A stretch of DNA of 64,000 nt from Dehalococcoidia bacterium (GCA_965263065.1 CBDHGH010000003.1:2565592-2629591), one strand, 5' to 3'; positions 6,523-61,343 are shown, numbered from the stretch's first letter. A program made the numbers and translations. Notes: generated by a model not told the origin, from the sequence alone.

Positions 6523-7317
6523 TCACCCGAGGTACTCCCGCAGAGCCGCGACGGTCCGCTGCTGCGACAGCTCGAAGAAGGCCTCCACCTTGGCCGCGCC
6601 GACACTGCGCAGCGTCTCCTCCAGCAATTCGGGGATCTGCTCCACGAACGCACGGTACTCGGCGTCGGAGCCGACGCCCGCGTCCCGCAAGTGCCGGGAA
6701 GCGACCACGCTGAAGCGCTCCCAGTCCGGCGCGTGCTCCGTGAGACCGGCGGAGACATCGCGCCACCGCTCCAGCGTCGCACGGTCAAGGAAGCCGCAAT
6801 CGACGTCGAGGGCGCAGCCGTACAGCGACTGCCGCAGCCCATCCATCGTCTCGGGGCTCTCGCGCTCGCGGCGGTCCATCTCGTACTGCAGGATGCGGTC
6901 CAGCAGGTTGGCGCGCCGCCCCCCACCCAGCGCGGATCGGCGGCCGAAATGAGGCCGGTAGATCTCCTCGATGTACGTCTCGTCCATCACCAGGTGGGCA
7001 ATGAATCCGCCCGCCCAGGCGCGCGTCTGTGGCGCCAGGGCGCCGGCGTCGCGCAGCCGCGGGTGGGCCGCCAGGAAGCCCCCCACGCTGTCCTGGTGCT
7101 GCTCCTCGCTCAGGTCGAAGAAGTGCGTGCGCTCGCGCTCCCAGCGCGTGATCACGCGGATGTCGGGCGTCGTCGCGCCCAGCGTGAACGCGCCGACTTC
7201 CTCGGAGTTGGCGGACTCCCGCCCGGCCGGCCCCGCGGCCTCGCTGGCGGGGCCGAACAGGCCCGCCTCCTGGGCGGCGCGGCGGGCGGCGAGCATATGC
7301 GAGACCAGCGGCGGCAC
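6523..7317 (-). CDS. hypothetical protein, possibly a metal-dependent hydrolase or Zn-phospholipase-C-like fold; first gene of the his operon
   Basis: 264 aa; motif FIAHLVMDETYIEEIY; no confident family assignment; co-directional with hisD, 26 nt upstream of it. Confidence 0.45.
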   Translation of the reverse strand: MPPLVSHMLAARRAAQEAGLFGPASEAAGPAGRESANSEEVGAFTLGATTPDIRVITRWERERTHFFDLSEEQHQDSVGGFLAAHPRLRDAGALAPQTRAWAGGFIAHLVMDETYIEEIYRPHFGRRSALGGGRRANLLDRILQYEMDRRERESPETMDGLRQSLYGCALDVDCGFLDRATLERWRDVSAGLTEHAPDWERFSVVASRHLRDAGVGSDAEYRAFVEQIPELLEETLRSVGAAKVEAFFELSQQRTVAALREYLG

Positions 7318-14627: not shown

Positions 14628-15038
<411 letters not shown>

Positions 15039-49954: not shown

Positions 49955-50157
49955 GGGTACTCGCAGGCGCATCGTGGGGCTGGCGGGGATTACGACGAGC
50001 CGTGCGCGGGGGCTCCCGATCACGGTATCGCCGGCCCGGAGTGGGCTCAACGAACGAGCTAACACGCCCGCGCCCCGATCAGCGCTCGTTGACGGCGGTG
50101 CGCGACGCTGGATAGGGTGCCGCTGACGCGGCAGCGCCTGCGAAGGAGTAGCTCCGG

Positions 50158-50277
50158 GATGCGATTTTTGATGGGCTTGGCGGTGGGGGTCGTGGTGGGC
50201 TTCGCGGTCGTCGCGATCGTCACGGGGGAGTCGGGCGGGGCCCTGATCGCACAGGCGCGCGCGCGGCTGCGCAACTA
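50158..50277 (+). CDS. 39-aa hydrophobic peptide [39 protein letters not shown]
   Basis: GAAGGAG RBS 10 nt upstream of the ATG; single predicted TM helix; not in the supplied track (below its size cutoff). Confidence 0.35.
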
Positions 50278-50402
50278 GCGTCGCTCACGCCGCGCCGGCG
50301 CCGTCGCGCCGCGTTCGCGTTAGTCGGGGCGACCCTTGTGGTCGCCCTGCCGGGCGCCCTGCCGGGCGGAGTCCGGGCGCCCTACCCGCCCGCCTTCCCT
50401 TT

Positions 50403-50477
50403 CCGGTCCCCCCTCTCCAGCGCTTTAGCTGGAGAGGGGGGCAGGGGGTGAGGTTCCCACGCAGGGGGTGAGGTTCC
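50403..50477. repeat. GC-rich hairpin element copy A (CCGGTCCCCCCTCTCCAGC-gcttta-GCTGGAGAGGGGGG + 2x GCAGGGGGTGAGGTTCC)
   Basis: Seen in the sequence; immediately 3' of the stop codon of the substrate-binding protein gene. Confidence 0.75.
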
Positions 50478-50480
50478 GCT

Positions 50481-52859
50481 CTACACCCCGGGCTTGCCCT
50501 CAAACCACGACCGGTACAGCCGTTGGGTGGCGGCGGTGCTGCTGTTGGTCGGGCCGTAGCCCTTGAGCCAGGGACGGTGTGCGACGGTCGGCACGCCCCA
50601 ATTGAAGAAGATCCGGGGCACGTGCTCTTCGAGCAGCTTGGTCTGGATCTCGTCGTAGATCGACACCCGGTTCTCGGTGCCGATGGTGGTGCGTCCCTGC
50701 TCCAGCAGCGCGTCGATCTCGGGGTCGGAGAACTTGCCGTAGTTCCGTGCGCCGTCGGTCTGGTGGCTGCTGGAGAGGATGTCGGGGTCGTGCGCGCCGC
50801 CGAAGCCATTCCAGTGGATGGAGAAATTCCCCGACGACCGCTGGTCCTGGCCCTCCATGCTGGTCGTCTCCTCAAGATCGACCTCGAAGCCGATTTCGGC
50901 CCAGTTCTGCTGGCCCACCTGCGCGTAATGGATGGATCCGTCCCAGGAGCTCATCGGCGGCACGCTCGCCGGGTCGTAGCCGCTGGCGTCGAGCAGCCGC
51001 CGGCCCTCGGCCAGGTCCTCCTCGCGCAGGGCGCCGGAGCGGTAGCCGGGCAGCTCGCGGAGCTCGTCGGCGCTCCACGCGTACACGCCGGCCGCGTGGC
51101 AGATCACCCCGCCGATCTCGATGAGACCTTGGCCCACCGCGAAGAGCTGTTCCCGGTTGGTGGCGAGATGCAGGGCCATGCGCACGCGCGGGTCGGTGTA
51201 GGGCTCGACCTGGAGGTTGAAGTGCGTCGAGAAGCTCCAGGTCGCTTGCATGGGCACTTCGACGAGGTTCTCCTCGCCGACCTGGGCCCGCACGGCCTCG
51301 TTCTCTGCCGGGAAGCCCAGCCACGGGATTAAGAGGAAGTCGGCCTCGCCGGCGACGTACTGTGCGGCCCGATACGCCGCGTCCGCATTCCAGTTCGCCC
51401 GGAACCCGTCGAAGTAGGGGAGCCCTGCGCGGAAGTAGTTGGGGTTGCGTTCCAGCACGGTGAGGACGTCGGCCTCACGGGAGACATGCTGCATGCCGCC
51501 GGTGCCGATGGCGGCCTCGGGGTTGCTGGCGATGCCGTCGTCGCCGAAGGCCTCGACCGCGTCGCGTGAGACCATGAGCACCCGCTGCTCGCCGACGGCG
51601 TAGAGCAGCGGCGCGAACACCTCTCTCGCCTTGATGTGCAGGGTGAGTTCGTCGGTGGCCTCGTACTGGTCGACGGCGGAGAGGAGGTCTTTCAAGATGA
51701 ACTCGGGGTTGTCCTGGCCGAAGCGTGCGAGTCCGAAAGCGGCGTCTTCGGCGACGAACTGACGCCCGTTCAGCGGGGCCTTGTCCTGCCAGTGCACGTT
51801 CGGCTTGATGGCGTAGATGAAGTTGAGCTCATCGACGACCTCGGGCAGCTCCGCCATCGCCGAGGTGAGCACACCGCCGTTATCGAGGTAGTTGATGTGG
51901 TCGTAGATCGGCAACCAGTTGCTGTCGTTGCCGCCGTGGTCGGCGATGGCCGGGTCGAGGATGCCGCCGCTGTCCGCGAAGTAGGTGACGACGCCTCCGT
52001 ACTGCGGGCCGGTGGCCGGGGCCGGCTCGTCCTCCGCCGCCGCCATGGCCGCGCTCTCGGCGGCCTCCTGGGCCGCGTCGGCGGCCTCTTGGGCGGCGGC
52101 GACGGCCGCGGCGGCGGTCTCGGCCGCGGCTTCGGCGGTCTCCTGGGCCGTGGCGGCGGCCTGCCCGGCGGCGGCGGCGGCCTGCCCGGCGGCGGCGGAC
52201 GCCTCCCCGGCGGCCGCCGCGGCGGCGGCAGCGGCCTCGGCGGCGTTGTCGATGGCGGCCTGGGCGGCCGCCGCGGTGGCCGTGCCGGCTTCGACGGCCG
52301 CGGCGACATCGCGGGCGGCCTGGGCGGCGGCCTCGGCCGCCTCGGCGGCGGCGTCCGCGACGGCCGCGGCAGCGGCGTCGCCGGCAGCGCCAGCGGCGTC
52401 GGCGGCCTGGGCGGCCGCTGCGGCGGCGGCTTCCGCGGCGGCGGCCGCGTTGCCGGCGTCTTCCGACTCGGCCGCCTCGGCGGCCAAGGCGGCGGCGGCA
52501 TCGGCGGCGCTGGCCGCCTGCGAGGCGGCGGCGGAGGCCTCGCCGGCGGCGTCTGCCGCGTCGGCCGCAGCGGCGGAGGCCTCGCCTGCGGCGTCTGCCG
52601 CCTCGGCCGCGACGGCGGCGGCGGCGGCGGATTCGGCGGCGCGCGCATCCCCGGCGGCGACCGCCGCGGCGGCGGCCTCTTCCGCGGCCGCGGCGGCCCG
52701 TTCGGCCGCCACGGCGCCGGCGTCGGGCCCGTCGTCGTCGCCGCAGCCGACCAGGGCGAGGCCGGCTGCTCCAACCCCAGCCTTCGCGCTGGCTCCCAAC
52801 ATGGTGCGGCGTGAGATCTTCCGCTGTCGCAGGGTCGTCCAATAGTTCCGGCGGCTCAT
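50481..52859 (-). CDS. ABC transporter substrate-binding lipoprotein (family 5, peptide/nickel type) with Tat signal, lipobox and a roughly 270-aa Ala/Glu-rich low-complexity spacer
   Basis: Tat-signal and lipobox region MSRRNYW...SRRTMLGASAKAGVGAAGLALVGCG; spacer AAAEEAAAAA...; C-terminal SBP_bac_5-like domain; GGAAGGGA RBS; no permease or ATPase genes adjacent. Confidence 0.78.
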   Translation of the reverse strand: MSRRNYWTTLRQRKISRRTMLGASAKAGVGAAGLALVGCGDDDGPDAGAVAAERAAAAAEEAAAAAVAAGDARAAESAAAAAVAAEAADAAGEASAAAADAADAAGEASAAASQAASAADAAAALAAEAAESEDAGNAAAAAEAAAAAAAQAADAAGAAGDAAAAAVADAAAEAAEAAAQAARDVAAAVEAGTATAAAAQAAIDNAAEAAAAAAAAAGEASAAAGQAAAAAGQAAATAQETAEAAAETAAAAVAAAQEAADAAQEAAESAAMAAAEDEPAPATGPQYGGVVTYFADSGGILDPAIADHGGNDSNWLPIYDHINYLDNGGVLTSAMAELPEVVDELNFIYAIKPNVHWQDKAPLNGRQFVAEDAAFGLARFGQDNPEFILKDLLSAVDQYEATDELTLHIKAREVFAPLLYAVGEQRVLMVSRDAVEAFGDDGIASNPEAAIGTGGMQHVSREADVLTVLERNPNYFRAGLPYFDGFRANWNADAAYRAAQYVAGEADFLLIPWLGFPAENEAVRAQVGEENLVEVPMQATWSFSTHFNLQVEPYTDPRVRMALHLATNREQLFAVGQGLIEIGGVICHAAGVYAWSADELRELPGYRSGALREEDLAEGRRLLDASGYDPASVPPMSSWDGSIHYAQVGQQNWAEIGFEVDLEETTSMEGQDQRSSGNFSIHWNGFGGAHDPDILSSSHQTDGARNYGKFSDPEIDALLEQGRTTIGTENRVSIYDEIQTKLLEEHVPRIFFNWGVPTVAHRPWLKGYGPTNSSTAATQRLYRSWFEGKPGV

Positions 52860-52932
52860 CACATGTTCCCTTCCGGTCCCCGGCTGTCCCGTTGTGGGAT
52901 CGCTCGGTGCGTGAGCACGCACAGTATCGCAC

Positions 52933-52959
52933 ATTATAAGCGTGCACCCCCCCCCCCCC
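52933..52959 (-). promoter_or_regulatory. Candidate promoter: perfect TATAAT -10 box (minus strand) 8 nt downstream of a 13-nt G tract (C13 on the plus strand at 52947-52959)
   Basis: Seen in the sequence; lies in an AT-richer island about 75 nt upstream of the substrate-binding protein start. Confidence 0.5.
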
Positions 52960-53087
52960 GTTATGTCATATAGGAAGGAAATTATGGGGTTATCCACCGA
53001 ATTTTTCGGCTTCTCACGCTGTTGGAACCCCCCCCTGTGTCACTCGTGGGGTTCCGGCGTGCGATCGCGCGGGGGAACCTCGCCCGT

Positions 53088-53143
53088 CCGGTCCCCCCTC
53101 TCCATCGCTTCAGCTGGAGAGGGGGTTAGGGGGTGAGGTTCCC
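53088..53143. repeat. GC-rich hairpin element copy B (CCGGTCCCCCCTCTCCATC-gcttca-GCTGGAGAGGGGG-TTAGGGGGTGAGGTTCCC), in the same orientation as copy A
   Basis: Seen in the sequence; an inverted partial motif GGGGGAACCTC at 53071-53084 gives an outer stem. Confidence 0.75.
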
Positions 53144-53253
53144 GACGTCGCACGCCCCGCAGCCCGGTTGTCAGCAGGGTCGTGTAGCGAAGACGTGGGG
53201 CCGAAGCTGTGGGCGAGTATCATGAAGCAAGCGGGCCGCAGGAGAGAACGCCG

Positions 53254-53598
53254 ATGAAGCTGACCTACGCCGTCGTCTTCGAGCAGACGCCCAACAACTA
53301 CTGCGCCTACGTGCCGGACGTGCCGGGCTGCATCAGCACGGGCAAGACCTGGGACGAGATGCAGGCGCTGATCCGGGAGGCGCTCAGCTTCCATATCGAG
53401 GATCTGCTGGAGCAGGGCGAGCCCCTCCCCGAGCCGAAGATGTCCATCAAGCAGGCGATCGCCTGCCACAACGAGCCCATCCCCGAGGATGTCCTCCGGT
53501 CGTACGCCGAGTACGGCGACGACACTCCCACGCTGTCGACGAGGGTCGAGCTCGTGGAGGTGGAGGTTCCGGCCCCGCAGGCGGCGCGGGCGAACTGA
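53254..53598 (+). CDS. HicB-like (UPF0150 family) type II antitoxin-fold protein, orphan
   Basis: Sequence MKLTYAVVFEQTPNNYCAYVPDVPGCISTGKTWDEMQALIREALSFHIEDLLEQGEPLPEP; GGAGAG RBS; no hicA nearby. Confidence 0.65.
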   Translation: MKLTYAVVFEQTPNNYCAYVPDVPGCISTGKTWDEMQALIREALSFHIEDLLEQGEPLPEPKMSIKQAIACHNEPIPEDVLRSYAEYGDDTPTLSTRVELVEVEVPAPQAARAN

Positions 53599-53666
53599 AG
53601 CCCCGGGTCGATTCGGCCCCGGAGGTCAGGCGCGGCGGGGTCGGGGCGCGGGCCCCAGATCGACGC

Positions 53667-60515: not shown

Positions 60516-60644
60516 TCCCCGCGTCACGGCGCCGGGCGGAGACTTGGGACGATTGGGGGCCCGGCGGCGCGGTCACTTGCCCCCCCATCGGGGGGCTCGT
60601 AGGCTGTTCCGGTACCCCTTCAACAGATGAGGTTCACGAAGACG

Positions 60645-61343
60645 ATGTACGCCGTCATCCGCACCGGCGGGAAGCAATATCGCGTGGAGGCGGGCCAGCA
60701 GCTCCGAGTGGAGAAGCTGTCCGGCGCCGCCGGCGACCGCGTGGAGTTCCCCGAGGTCCTCATGATCGGCGGCGACGGCGATGTCGCGGTCGGTACGCCG
60801 ACCGTTGAGCACGCGAGGGTCGTTGGGGAGATCGTGGAGCAGGGCCGCGGCCGCAAGATCACGGTCTTCAAGTACAAGAGCAAGACGCGCTATCGCCGGC
60901 TGCGCGGGCACCGGCAGCAGCAGACGTTGCTGGCGATCACCGAGATCCAATCTCCCGACGGACGGTCGGCCTCATGGGAGTTGCGCCGGCCGGGGGCGCT
61001 GACAGCGGAGTTGGACGACGCGCCGGCGGACCTGCGGGAGGACCTGCGGGAGGACGACCCGGAGGAGAGCGGCGTGGAGGCGACGCTCGTCGCCGAGGAG
61101 CCGGCAGCCCCGGAGGTCGTCGAGTCGGAGGTCGTCGAGGCAGCGCCGTCGGACGAGGCAGCGCCGTCGGACGAGGCAGCAGCAGTTGAAGAGGCCGGGG
61201 AGGCCGGGGCCGCGGAGACGGCGCCGGAGCCCGCGACCGCCGAGATCGCCGACGATGCGCCGGAGGCGGTCGCCAAGCCCGCAGCCCGGGCCCGCAAGAC
61301 CGGCGCTAAGAAGGCCGCCGCCAAGAAGGCTGAGGAAGAGTAA
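60645..61343 (+). CDS. rplU: 50S ribosomal protein L21 with a roughly 130-aa acidic Ala/Glu/Pro-rich C-terminal extension
   Basis: L21 core [18 protein letters not shown]; tail ...[29 protein letters not shown]...[11 protein letters not shown]. Confidence 0.85.

Follow-up and report, generated by a model that had tools for sequence, protein, structure and literature searches.

In a 64,000-nt stretch of DNA from a Dehalococcoidia bacterium (GCA_965263065.1, CBDHGH010000003.1:2565592-2629591; hereafter the window), the gene for a lipoprotein of the SBP_bac_5 family, a substrate-binding protein (SBP), is bracketed by two direct copies of a GC-rich hairpin element, copy A and copy B. By their sequence, both copies belong to the BoxC / PIT / 'triplex motif' class of short intergenic repeats, of which they represent an extended-hairpin variant; this kind of repeat has already been described, and the variant and its host range are new. 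The SBP is missing, swapped or strongly diverged in related strains, so that the repeats mark a recombination-prone slot and not the ends of a mobile cassette, nor are they a transposon. The reading we favour, and hold to be rather probable, is that these BoxC-type elements mark a recombination-prone gene slot and in addition serve as hairpins at gene ends and as recombination or gene-conversion junctions, functions that we infer.

Copies A and B are extended-hairpin repeats of the BoxC class

A repeat search of the window resolved the copies as one two-copy direct family (50393-50458 and 53078-53143) with a 66-nt unit at 88% identity, both copies being intergenic. The 30-nt hairpin core CCCCTCTCCAGCGCTTTAGCTGGAGAGGGG matched the window only at 50410-50439, with no mismatch, and at 53095-53124, with two, against an expected number of 0 from 100 shuffles, and the arm GGGGGTGAGGTTCC occurred three times, at 50444, 50464 and 53129. 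Folding gave copy A a perfect 14-bp stem with an RNA fold z-score of -4.3, and copy B a stem of 11 bp, a mismatch and 1 bp, enclosed by an outer stem formed through GGGGGAACCTCGCCC. The third arm remained unpaired in RNA and DNA folds alike, by tools that model Watson-Crick pairs only. An earlier reading of this stretch (the original prediction) had described the sequence correctly, including the tandem duplication in copy A, seen in the arm at 50444 and 50464, the inverted partial copy that forms the outer stem of copy B, and the position of copy A at a gene end without a U tract, which a terminator consensus scan bore out. The copies it delimited are real, although the shared unit begins ~10 nt earlier than it had placed the start, and the REP-like dispersed intergenic repeats that it recognised are, more precisely, BoxC/PIT/triplex-motif repeats.

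Each element is built from a pyrimidine stem of 10 nt (CCCCCTCTCC), the purine stem that pairs with it by Watson-Crick rules (GGAGAGGGGG), a loop of 3 nt and, on the 3' side, an arm (GGGGGTGAGG) that mirrors the purine stem, a layout permitting a predicted purine-motif (G.GC, T.AT, A.AT) intrastrand triplex on one DNA strand. Pairing of the pyrimidine and purine tracts (6-15 nt allowed) was 10/10 in both copies, GGGGGTGAGG set against the reversed GGAGAGGGGG gave 10/10 allowed triplets in A and B (up to one mismatch tolerated), and a direct-repeat (parallel) arm rule gave no hit at either copy. The second loop, at 3 nt, lies within the limits of ITxF (1-6 nt) and of Hoyne et al. (0-10 nt), and the first loop lies outside them. 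The triplet-obeying tracts stand 12 nt apart, the hairpin adding three (A) or one to two (B) non-triplex pairs around a 4-6-nt loop, and a default ITxF run would therefore miss both copies.

Our own implementation of the published triplet rules, with a longer first loop, stems of at least 8 nt, at most one mismatch and both strands scanned, returned exactly two sites in the 64 kb, copies A and B, and none in 200 dinucleotide shuffles, also under relaxed settings, an excess over scrambled sequence. As a positive control, the scan recovered Escherichia coli K-12 BoxC/TMECO sites 1 and 2 at their published coordinates. The core 8-mers CCCTCTCC, GGAGAGGG and GGGTGAGG and the TTA loop, which is that of copy B, recur in TMECO type A. 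Where the TMECO/BoxC consensus reads 5'-CCCTCNCCC N3-6 GGGNGAGGG N3 GGGNGAGGG, the window reads CCCCCTCTCC N12 GGAGAGGGGG N3 GGGGGTGAGG, sharing the core and loop 2 and differing in register and spacing.

Holder et al. (2015) equated BoxC, PIT and TM elements as class II purine motifs with the potential for an intrastrand triplex, associated these motifs with local rearrangement across 56 E. coli strains, and noted that the E. coli elements have no mobility genes around them; BoxC has been reported to form a triplex and to arrest polymerase in vitro (PMC4666352). A search of the literature after 2015 turned up no functional follow-up on these motifs. The elements described here are likewise intergenic, multi-copy and without linked mobility genes, with several loci per metagenome-assembled genome (MAG) among the matches listed below.

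Neither copy carried GTAG or CTAC beside its hairpin, GTAG being the mark of REP/BIME elements at the foot of the palindrome. Promoter and terminator consensus scans found no sigma-70 promoter and no U-tract terminator at the copies, which have the hairpin of an intrinsic terminator without a T run on either strand. The promoter that the original prediction had bracketed together with the SBP is likewise only putative, the consensus scan giving no sigma-70 match for it. Rfam returned no family at the copies at the gathering threshold over the whole window, and only sub-threshold microRNA-model noise at E<=10 over 50200-53400. That the G-rich half forms a regulatory G-quadruplex is hardly credible. 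The corresponding half of a Klebsiella BoxC-type repeat (GGGAGAGGGCCGGGGTGAGGG) has been studied as a G-quadruplex, but neither copy holds four runs of G>=3 with loops of 1-7 nt, and what the copies share with the E. coli type is the mirror-triplet layout and not the G-quadruplex pattern; we rejected this reading on the absence of the pattern from both copies.

The islet between the repeats varies among close relatives

The SBP and its repeats lie in an islet between two housekeeping genes, which was present, absent or partly replaced in close relatives, the closest genomes being uncultured 'Dehalococcoidia bacterium' MAGs of ~2.7-2.9 Mb and ~70% GC. The arrangement of the window was found at nine loci from eight samples, which excludes an assembly artefact. 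Loci L123 and L124 (GlyRS 92-93%, DNA ~84-87% identical) were colinear with the window on both sides and lacked 50284-53636, H+-PPase being followed directly by a small open reading frame (ORF) and GlyRS. The empty site of L124 was a ~50-nt spacer with no repeat, and that of L123 held one repeat in the same orientation.

The encoded SBP carries a twin-arginine-like signal with a lipobox, then a ~250-aa Ala-rich linker (~52000-52760) of low complexity (A/E/D/G/Q) and then the binding domain, its length varying from 768 to 792 aa across strains. L130 and L131 matched the window at 100% over almost all of the SBP, but at only 64-81% in copy A and the flank outside it. Six loci (L125, L126, L132, L133, L135 and L136) combined flanks at 95-96% with an SBP at 84-85% nucleotide (79% amino acid) identity and a copy-B region non-homologous to that of the window. 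In L127, which shares the signal peptide and linker and has flanks at 97%, the binding domain had no BLASTP similarity to that of the window, and the breaks fell at 53078 (B inner edge), ~52100 (linker end) and 50382 (A outer edge); in L129, an nSTAND/AAA ATPase gene stood in place of the binding domain and copy A, the breaks falling at 50331 and 52092. Breakpoints recurred at or within ~100 nt of the repeats, on the outer flank of A and in the B region, and also where the Ala-rich linker ends, and the sharpest drops in identity stood at or beside the repeats.

Past copy A, L001 (96.5% identical) carried another repeat and then oppB and oppC, and may represent a larger islet or a strain-mixed assembly, given that another contig of that sample (L130) shows the arrangement of the window. 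An origin of the window arrangement from that of L001 through two inversions at repeats was rejected, since it conflicts with the orientation of the genes. The SBP homologues at a greater distance (L120-L122) lay in SBP-oppB-oppC operons devoid of repeats, and the repeats therefore did not belong to the SBP gene ancestrally. In the 174-kb, 6x contig that holds L128 and L129 (ena:ERZ25766727:ctg358408_6x_l), the Fpg-to-GlyRS block occurred twice, inverted and ~40 kb apart, the two blocks differing in content beside the small ORF; this inverted duplication is probably an assembly artefact or a strain chimera, and we gave the contig little weight on that account.

Positions A and B exchange sequence, and no strain shows cassette excision

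The tops of the hairpins recorded traffic between the two positions. Position A had three top alleles, ATTGCTCCGCAAT in most strains, ATCGCTTCAGAT in L137 and AGCGCTTTAGCT in the window only; the window's A top is of the B type, two substitutions from its own copy B top, ATCGCTTCAGCT, and one of the two restores a base pair. In L125-type strains, position B carried ATTGCTCGGCAAT, an A-type top. Sequence has been exchanged between the positions, which by these alleles appear to draw on a shared pool through gene conversion or template switching, and part of the 88% A-B similarity is consequently recent homogenisation.

At position B of L125 and L126 (~6830-6885; alignment A1 columns 139-190) we observed the variant CCCCCGCGCC...GGCGCGGGGG TTC GGGGGTGCGG. 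The hairpin of L125 is perfect, the near-identical L126 still has GGAGAGGGGG as its 3' stem, with two mismatches, and the third arm has changed from TGAGG to TGCGG, which triplex rules leave unexplained. This looks like a stepwise compensatory change or an intra-hairpin correction.

The original prediction had taken the SBP for a one-gene cassette that homologous recombination between A and B could excise or duplicate, and had proposed a comparison of related strains. This comparison, now made, shows that the segment is not invariant, being absent from L123 and L124 and having its SBP replaced or diverged in L125-L127 and L129, and we consider the cassette very unlikely. The direct orientation of A and B in all strains, the exchange of hairpin tops, which amounts to gene conversion over 2.7 kb, and the single repeat at the empty site of L123 would agree with it. 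The ~12 strains, however, yielded no reciprocal A x B crossover product, with the SBP precisely deleted or duplicated and one repeat left, and the expected deletion product (hicB, one repeat and the small ORF) was seen in no strain. The strains without the SBP also lacked hicB and the REP-like cluster, so that A and B do not mark the limits of the indel; it is the 3.35-kb segment 50284-53636, running from the small ORF to the PPase stop and including hicB and a second kind of GC-rich hairpin, and the SBP is not a self-contained cassette. In addition, the longest unbroken identity between A and B is below 20 nt, and the unit that is swapped comprises copy A and the binding domain and ends, on its far side, within the Ala linker. 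The prediction had also named an outcome that would tell against it, namely generic genome-wide elements with no enrichment around this gene and a cassette invariant across strains. The elements are indeed generic across phyla, but they prefer the 3' ends of SBP_bac_5 genes, as described below, and the locus is variable.

The repeat is widespread, mainly in Chloroflexota

Scanning a collection of species-representative genomes for CCCCTCTCCA N6-14 TGGAGAGGGG returned at least 118 stretches, and the counts in this paragraph refer to the matches listed. Chloroflexota (Anaerolineae, Dehalococcoidia, Chloroflexia and Thermomicrobiales) accounted for 47 of the 80 titled loci, the remainder belonging to Bacteroidota, Thermoanaerobaculia, Patescibacteria, Gemmatimonadota, Zixibacteria and others. 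A mirror arm with at most one mismatch followed within a few nucleotides in 115 of 136 hairpins, in 107 of them as exactly GGGGTGAGG. Arms on both sides were present in only 14 of the 136, and Watson-Crick pairing with an opposite arm therefore cannot explain why the arm is conserved. The interior of the hairpin covaried, with at least one extra Watson-Crick pair in 114 of 126 distinct interiors, all four pair types being represented, and a mean of 1.56 extra pairs against 0.36 in shuffled interiors. The third arm was nearly always GGGG-T-G-A-GG (107/115), whereas triplex rules would admit A in place of the T just as well. Published searches for triplex motifs, limited to loops of at most 6 nt, would miss the extended-hairpin variant, so that the spread of the repeats has probably been underestimated.

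Tandem arrays and inverted pairs of the repeat occur. At 19932-20102 of L128, three tandem repeats at ~64-nt spacing stand upstream of an SBP paralogue. At 6715-6830 of L012, a copy of the E. coli type with a 9-nt stem (CCCTCTCCC TG GGGAGAGGG TTC GGGTGAGGG) adjoins a copy of the window type; the first loop of this near-consensus copy is 2 nt and not 3-6.

A non-autonomous mobile element, either a miniature inverted-repeat transposable element (MITE) or a REP mobilised by RAYT, of which copies A and B would be independent insertions, is quite an unlikely source of these repeats. The multi-copy occurrence across phyla with near-identical cores, the recurrence of a 'master' hairpin top (ATCGCTTCAGAT) in several genomes, and the tandem arrays and inverted pairs would suit such an element. 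The copies, however, lacked a target-site duplication, GTAG, and terminal inverted repeats beyond the palindrome; the filled spacer of L123 and the empty spacer of L124 are not related by a clean insertion; no transposase was found in the neighbourhood of the copies; the 2.9 million viral contigs of IMG/VR held only 22 hairpins, 8 of them with an arm; and the E. coli elements have no mobility genes nearby (Holder et al.). The motif GTCGATC beside the L123 repeat and the second L001 repeat looked like a target duplication and was set aside, as a simple insertion does not account for the difference between the filled and the empty site. A phage origin was likewise rejected, because the hairpin is rare in IMG/VR and most viral matches are without the arm.

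The repeats favour the 3' ends of SBP_bac_5 genes and are mostly antisense close behind genes

Copy A is located 3' of the SBP stop codon (50481-50483, minus strand) at a gap of about 3-4 nt, and copy B ~220-230 nt upstream of the SBP ATG (52859). In three other Chloroflexota genomes (L022, L047 and L005), a repeat follows the end of SBP_bac_5 genes at a distance of 11-17 nt; SBP paralogues in L012 and L128 have flanking repeats too, and in L001 and L128 repeats lie between SBP and permease genes. Other neighbours included dehydrogenases, permeases, a sigma-factor-like ORF (identified by eye) and others. The repeats are hence generic across phyla, with a preference for the 3' ends of SBP_bac_5 (binding-protein) cistrons.

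Among single-armed repeats that follow the stop of a long ORF by no more than 60 nt in the sampled loci, the G-rich strand was antisense to the gene in 35 and sense in 11 (p=5e-4), copy A being in the majority orientation. The ratio of ~3:1 held under other thresholds and with one repeat per locus, and faded at larger distances. The segment GGGGGUGA would pair 8/8, with one G.U, with the anti-Shine-Dalgarno sequence, which could add to the transcript orientation bias.

These placements raise the alternative that the repeats act at the RNA level only, as U-less terminators, 3'-end protectors or insulators, and that the strain variation arises from selection on the SBP and ordinary recombination in the flanks, which we regard as somewhat unlikely. 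The position of copy A immediately after the SBP stop, the confinement of the orientation bias to the vicinity of gene ends, the recurrence of repeats behind SBP_bac_5 genes and in the gaps that separate SBP from permease genes, and the covariation of the hairpin top speak for it. But identity drops most sharply at the repeats even where the SBP is almost entirely 100% identical, a solitary repeat remains at the empty site of L123 between convergent or unrelated genes, no terminator activity has been reported for the E. coli elements, and a simple hairpin terminator would have no obvious use for the conserved unpaired arm.

Other features of the islet and the window

The features of the locus are collected in Table 1. 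No permease gene adjoins the SBP in the window, and exact-protein look-ups for the SBP, hicB and the GlyRS representative P0001 gave no match. The module of putative promoter, signal peptide and Ala linker is multi-copy, the same N-terminal module heading SBP paralogues in L128 and L012. The cluster of a second hairpin kind (GGGGCGACCCTTGTGGTCGCCC and CCGGGCGGAGTCCGGGCGCCC), between copy A and the islet edge, is the site of several strain breakpoints. These hairpins are interleaved with the triplex-motif repeats in a BIME-like manner, both in the window and at 15380-15700 of L001, and some of them follow GTAG.

Table 1. Coordinates of the repeat parts, genes and other features of the islet in the window.
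Feature	Position	Strand	Basis or remark
Copy A (TM_A)	50393-50477	+	Repeat search, pattern matching, triplet-rule scan
Copy A pyrimidine (Y) stem CCCCCTCTCC	50409-50418	+	
Copy A hairpin top AGCGCTTTAGCT	50419-50430	+	
Copy A purine (R) stem GGAGAGGGGG	50431-50440	+	
Copy A loop GCA	50441-50443	+	
Copy A mirror third arm GGGGGTGAGG	50444-50453	+	Runs on as TTCC
Copy A second tandem arm	50464-50477	+	
Copy B (TM_B)	53078-53143	+	Repeat search, pattern matching, folding, triplet-rule scan
Copy B pyrimidine (Y) stem	53094-53103	+	
Copy B hairpin top ATCGCTTCAGCT	53104-53115	+	
Copy B purine (R) stem	53116-53125	+	
Copy B loop TTA	53126-53128	+	
Copy B third arm GGGGGTGAGG	53129-53138	+	Runs on as TTCCC
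Copy B degenerate opposite arm GGGGGAACCTCGCCC	53071-53085		
SBP_bac_5 lipoprotein gene, 792 aa	50481-52859	-	
Strain-variable islet, 3.35 kb	50284-53636	.	REP-like cluster, TM_A, SBP, TM_B, hicA remnant, hicB
Second GC-rich hairpin repeat cluster	50300-50392	+	GGGGCGACCCTTGTGGTCGCCC at 50326-50347; CCGGGCGGAGTCCGGGCGCCC at 50362-50382
hicA toxin C-terminal remnant (ending in KLWASIMKQAGRRRERR and stop)	53186-53257	+	Overlaps hicB start
hicB-like antitoxin gene, 114 aa	53254-53598	+	
Spacer just after PPase stop	53637-53666	-	Aligns with left arm of solitary L123 repeat
13-C homopolymer (13 G on SBP sense strand)	52947-52959	+	SBP upstream region

Of the toxin gene hicA only the final 20-25 codons appear to remain, immediately ahead of an intact hicB, and copy B occupies the place of the missing 5' two thirds. 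The same layout of hicA remnant and repeat was seen in the distant Chloroflexota locus L046 (1240-1335), whose hicB is ~72% identical at the nucleotide level and whose remnant matched positions 38-58/58 of Pfam HicA_toxin (E=2.5e-4); the remnant in the window gave no Pfam hit. The spacer after the PPase stop aligned with the left arm of the L123 repeat in 26/32 columns, and may be a decayed repeat arm.

Upstream of the SBP, the C-tract adjoins a TATAAT-like box and reads 5+10, 3+13, 3+11 or 10 in other strains; it could be a phase-variable tract or a long-read homopolymer error. A small conserved hydrophobic ORF (50117-50278; 39 aa in relatives, up to 53 aa here), on the opposite strand and always found with GlyRS, forms the fixed left edge of the variable islet. 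Elsewhere in the window, 14630-15032 encodes a bacterial RNase P RNA of class A (258.8 bits), and 60627-61343 is a gene for ribosomal protein L21 with a long acidic Ala-rich C-terminal extension.

Discussion

In the reading we favour, the mRNA of the SBP would carry the C-rich arm and then the very stable hairpin of copy A, which by analogy with the REP hairpins of ABC-importer operons would end or protect the transcript; alternatively, the orientation could serve to keep the structure-prone G-rich strand off the non-template strand. The coincidence of repeats and rearrangement is observed; as to its cause, the repeats could act as portable short homologies and their hairpins as fragile sites, at which DNA would be broken, joined and gene-converted, and the conserved module of putative promoter, signal peptide and Ala linker may provide a second homology anchor for swaps of the SBP binding domain.

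Several observations weigh against this account. Breakpoints also occur at the REP-like cluster and at the coding repeat of the Ala linker, and rearrangement breaks fall in intergenic DNA anyway, so that the repeats may be bystanders; several of the strain contigs are low-coverage long-read metagenome assemblies. As regards the gene-end role, copy A has no U tract, earlier work on the E. coli elements did not find promoter or terminator activity (PMC4666352), and the orientation statistics rest on crude stop-to-stop ORF calls at non-random loci among the matches listed. As regards the triplex, in vivo dimethyl sulfate footprinting in E. coli detected no stable triplex, and triplex pairing rules do not predict the conservation of T-G-A in the arm, as A-G-A is equally allowed.

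It is possible, though we doubt it, that the triplex itself is the active form, the G-rich strand folding when it is single-stranded, as a lagging-strand template or in the course of repair, and stalling polymerases so that breaks and slippage give local rearrangements, with no role at the RNA level. The arm is conserved without a Watson-Crick partner and obeys the mirror rule and not the direct-repeat rule, the asymmetric G-runs (2-5 / 5-2) still mirror each other though the G-quadruplex motif is lost, and BoxC was reported to form a triplex and arrest polymerase in vitro. The antisense bias could reflect avoidance of a G-rich non-template strand, and the positive GC skew of the + strand would place both G-rich strands on the lagging-strand template, a weak indication with n=2. 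Besides the negative in vivo result and the T-G-A preference, which the triplex leaves unexplained, the CGCG variant of L125, which breaks the purine rule, persists as a perfect hairpin, suggesting that the hairpin and not the triplex is maintained.

More speculatively, and in our view unlikely, the triplex-motif repeats of this Dehalococcoidia-class lineage could frame a domain-swapping slot for substrate-binding lipoproteins that diversifies the specificity of nutrient uptake. With the N-terminal module on one side and the repeat on the other, binding domains would be exchanged among paralogues and strains, the repeat promoting breaks or template switches through its hairpin or triplex. If true, this would give a concrete role to BoxC-type repeats, whose function has been unknown since 1992.

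BoxC/PIT elements have gone three decades without an established function, the sole lead being a statistical link to genome instability in E. coli. The present locus offers a natural case from an unrelated phylum, with ~12 strains in empty, single-repeat and several filled states and with exchange between the repeats. The allele series, the orientation bias and the placement at SBP genes make both the transcript-end hairpin and the recombination junction testable.

Comparison with known systems

The REP/BIME elements of enterobacterial ABC-importer operons serve us as a working analogy and not as a family to which the copies belong. In these operons, for example between malE and malF, stable GC-rich hairpins stand right after the binding-protein cistron, at times clustered with other repeats, and REPs are known substrates of recombination. 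REPs carry a conserved GTAG, have a cognate RAYT transposase and are without a mirror third arm. KP-PGQ-5 of Klebsiella pneumoniae corresponds to the purine stem, loop and arm of a BoxC-type repeat (PMC11170735), whereas the window copies fail the G-quadruplex pattern. The triplex motifs of cyanobacteria and Thermus found with ITxF (PMC4666352), likened here by description, are also G/C-rich, of class II and abundant in plastic genomes.

The closest relatives are the BoxC/PIT/TMECO elements of E. coli and other Proteobacteria (Bergler 1992; Hoyne and Maher 2000; Holder et al. 2015). They differ from the present variant in having the symmetric 9-mer CCCTCNCCC where the window has 10-nt stems with asymmetric G-runs (CCCCCTCTCC), and in the spacing of their tracts, which is 3-6 nt in the consensus and limited to 1-6 nt in ITxF, compared with the 8-13 nt and one to four extra covarying pairs seen here. 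The variant lacks a G-quadruplex motif and shows a gene-end orientation bias, none being reported for E. coli; its hosts are mainly Chloroflexota, which are not mentioned in PMC4666352, together with Bacteroidota, Acidobacteriota, Patescibacteria and others. By contrast with these differences, the order of parts is the same, the core 8-mers are identical and the TTA loop of type A recurs. Both kinds are strictly intergenic and multi-copy, stand alone, in inverted pairs or with an arm on either side, have no linked mobility genes, and are tied to DNA that is locally variable between close strains.

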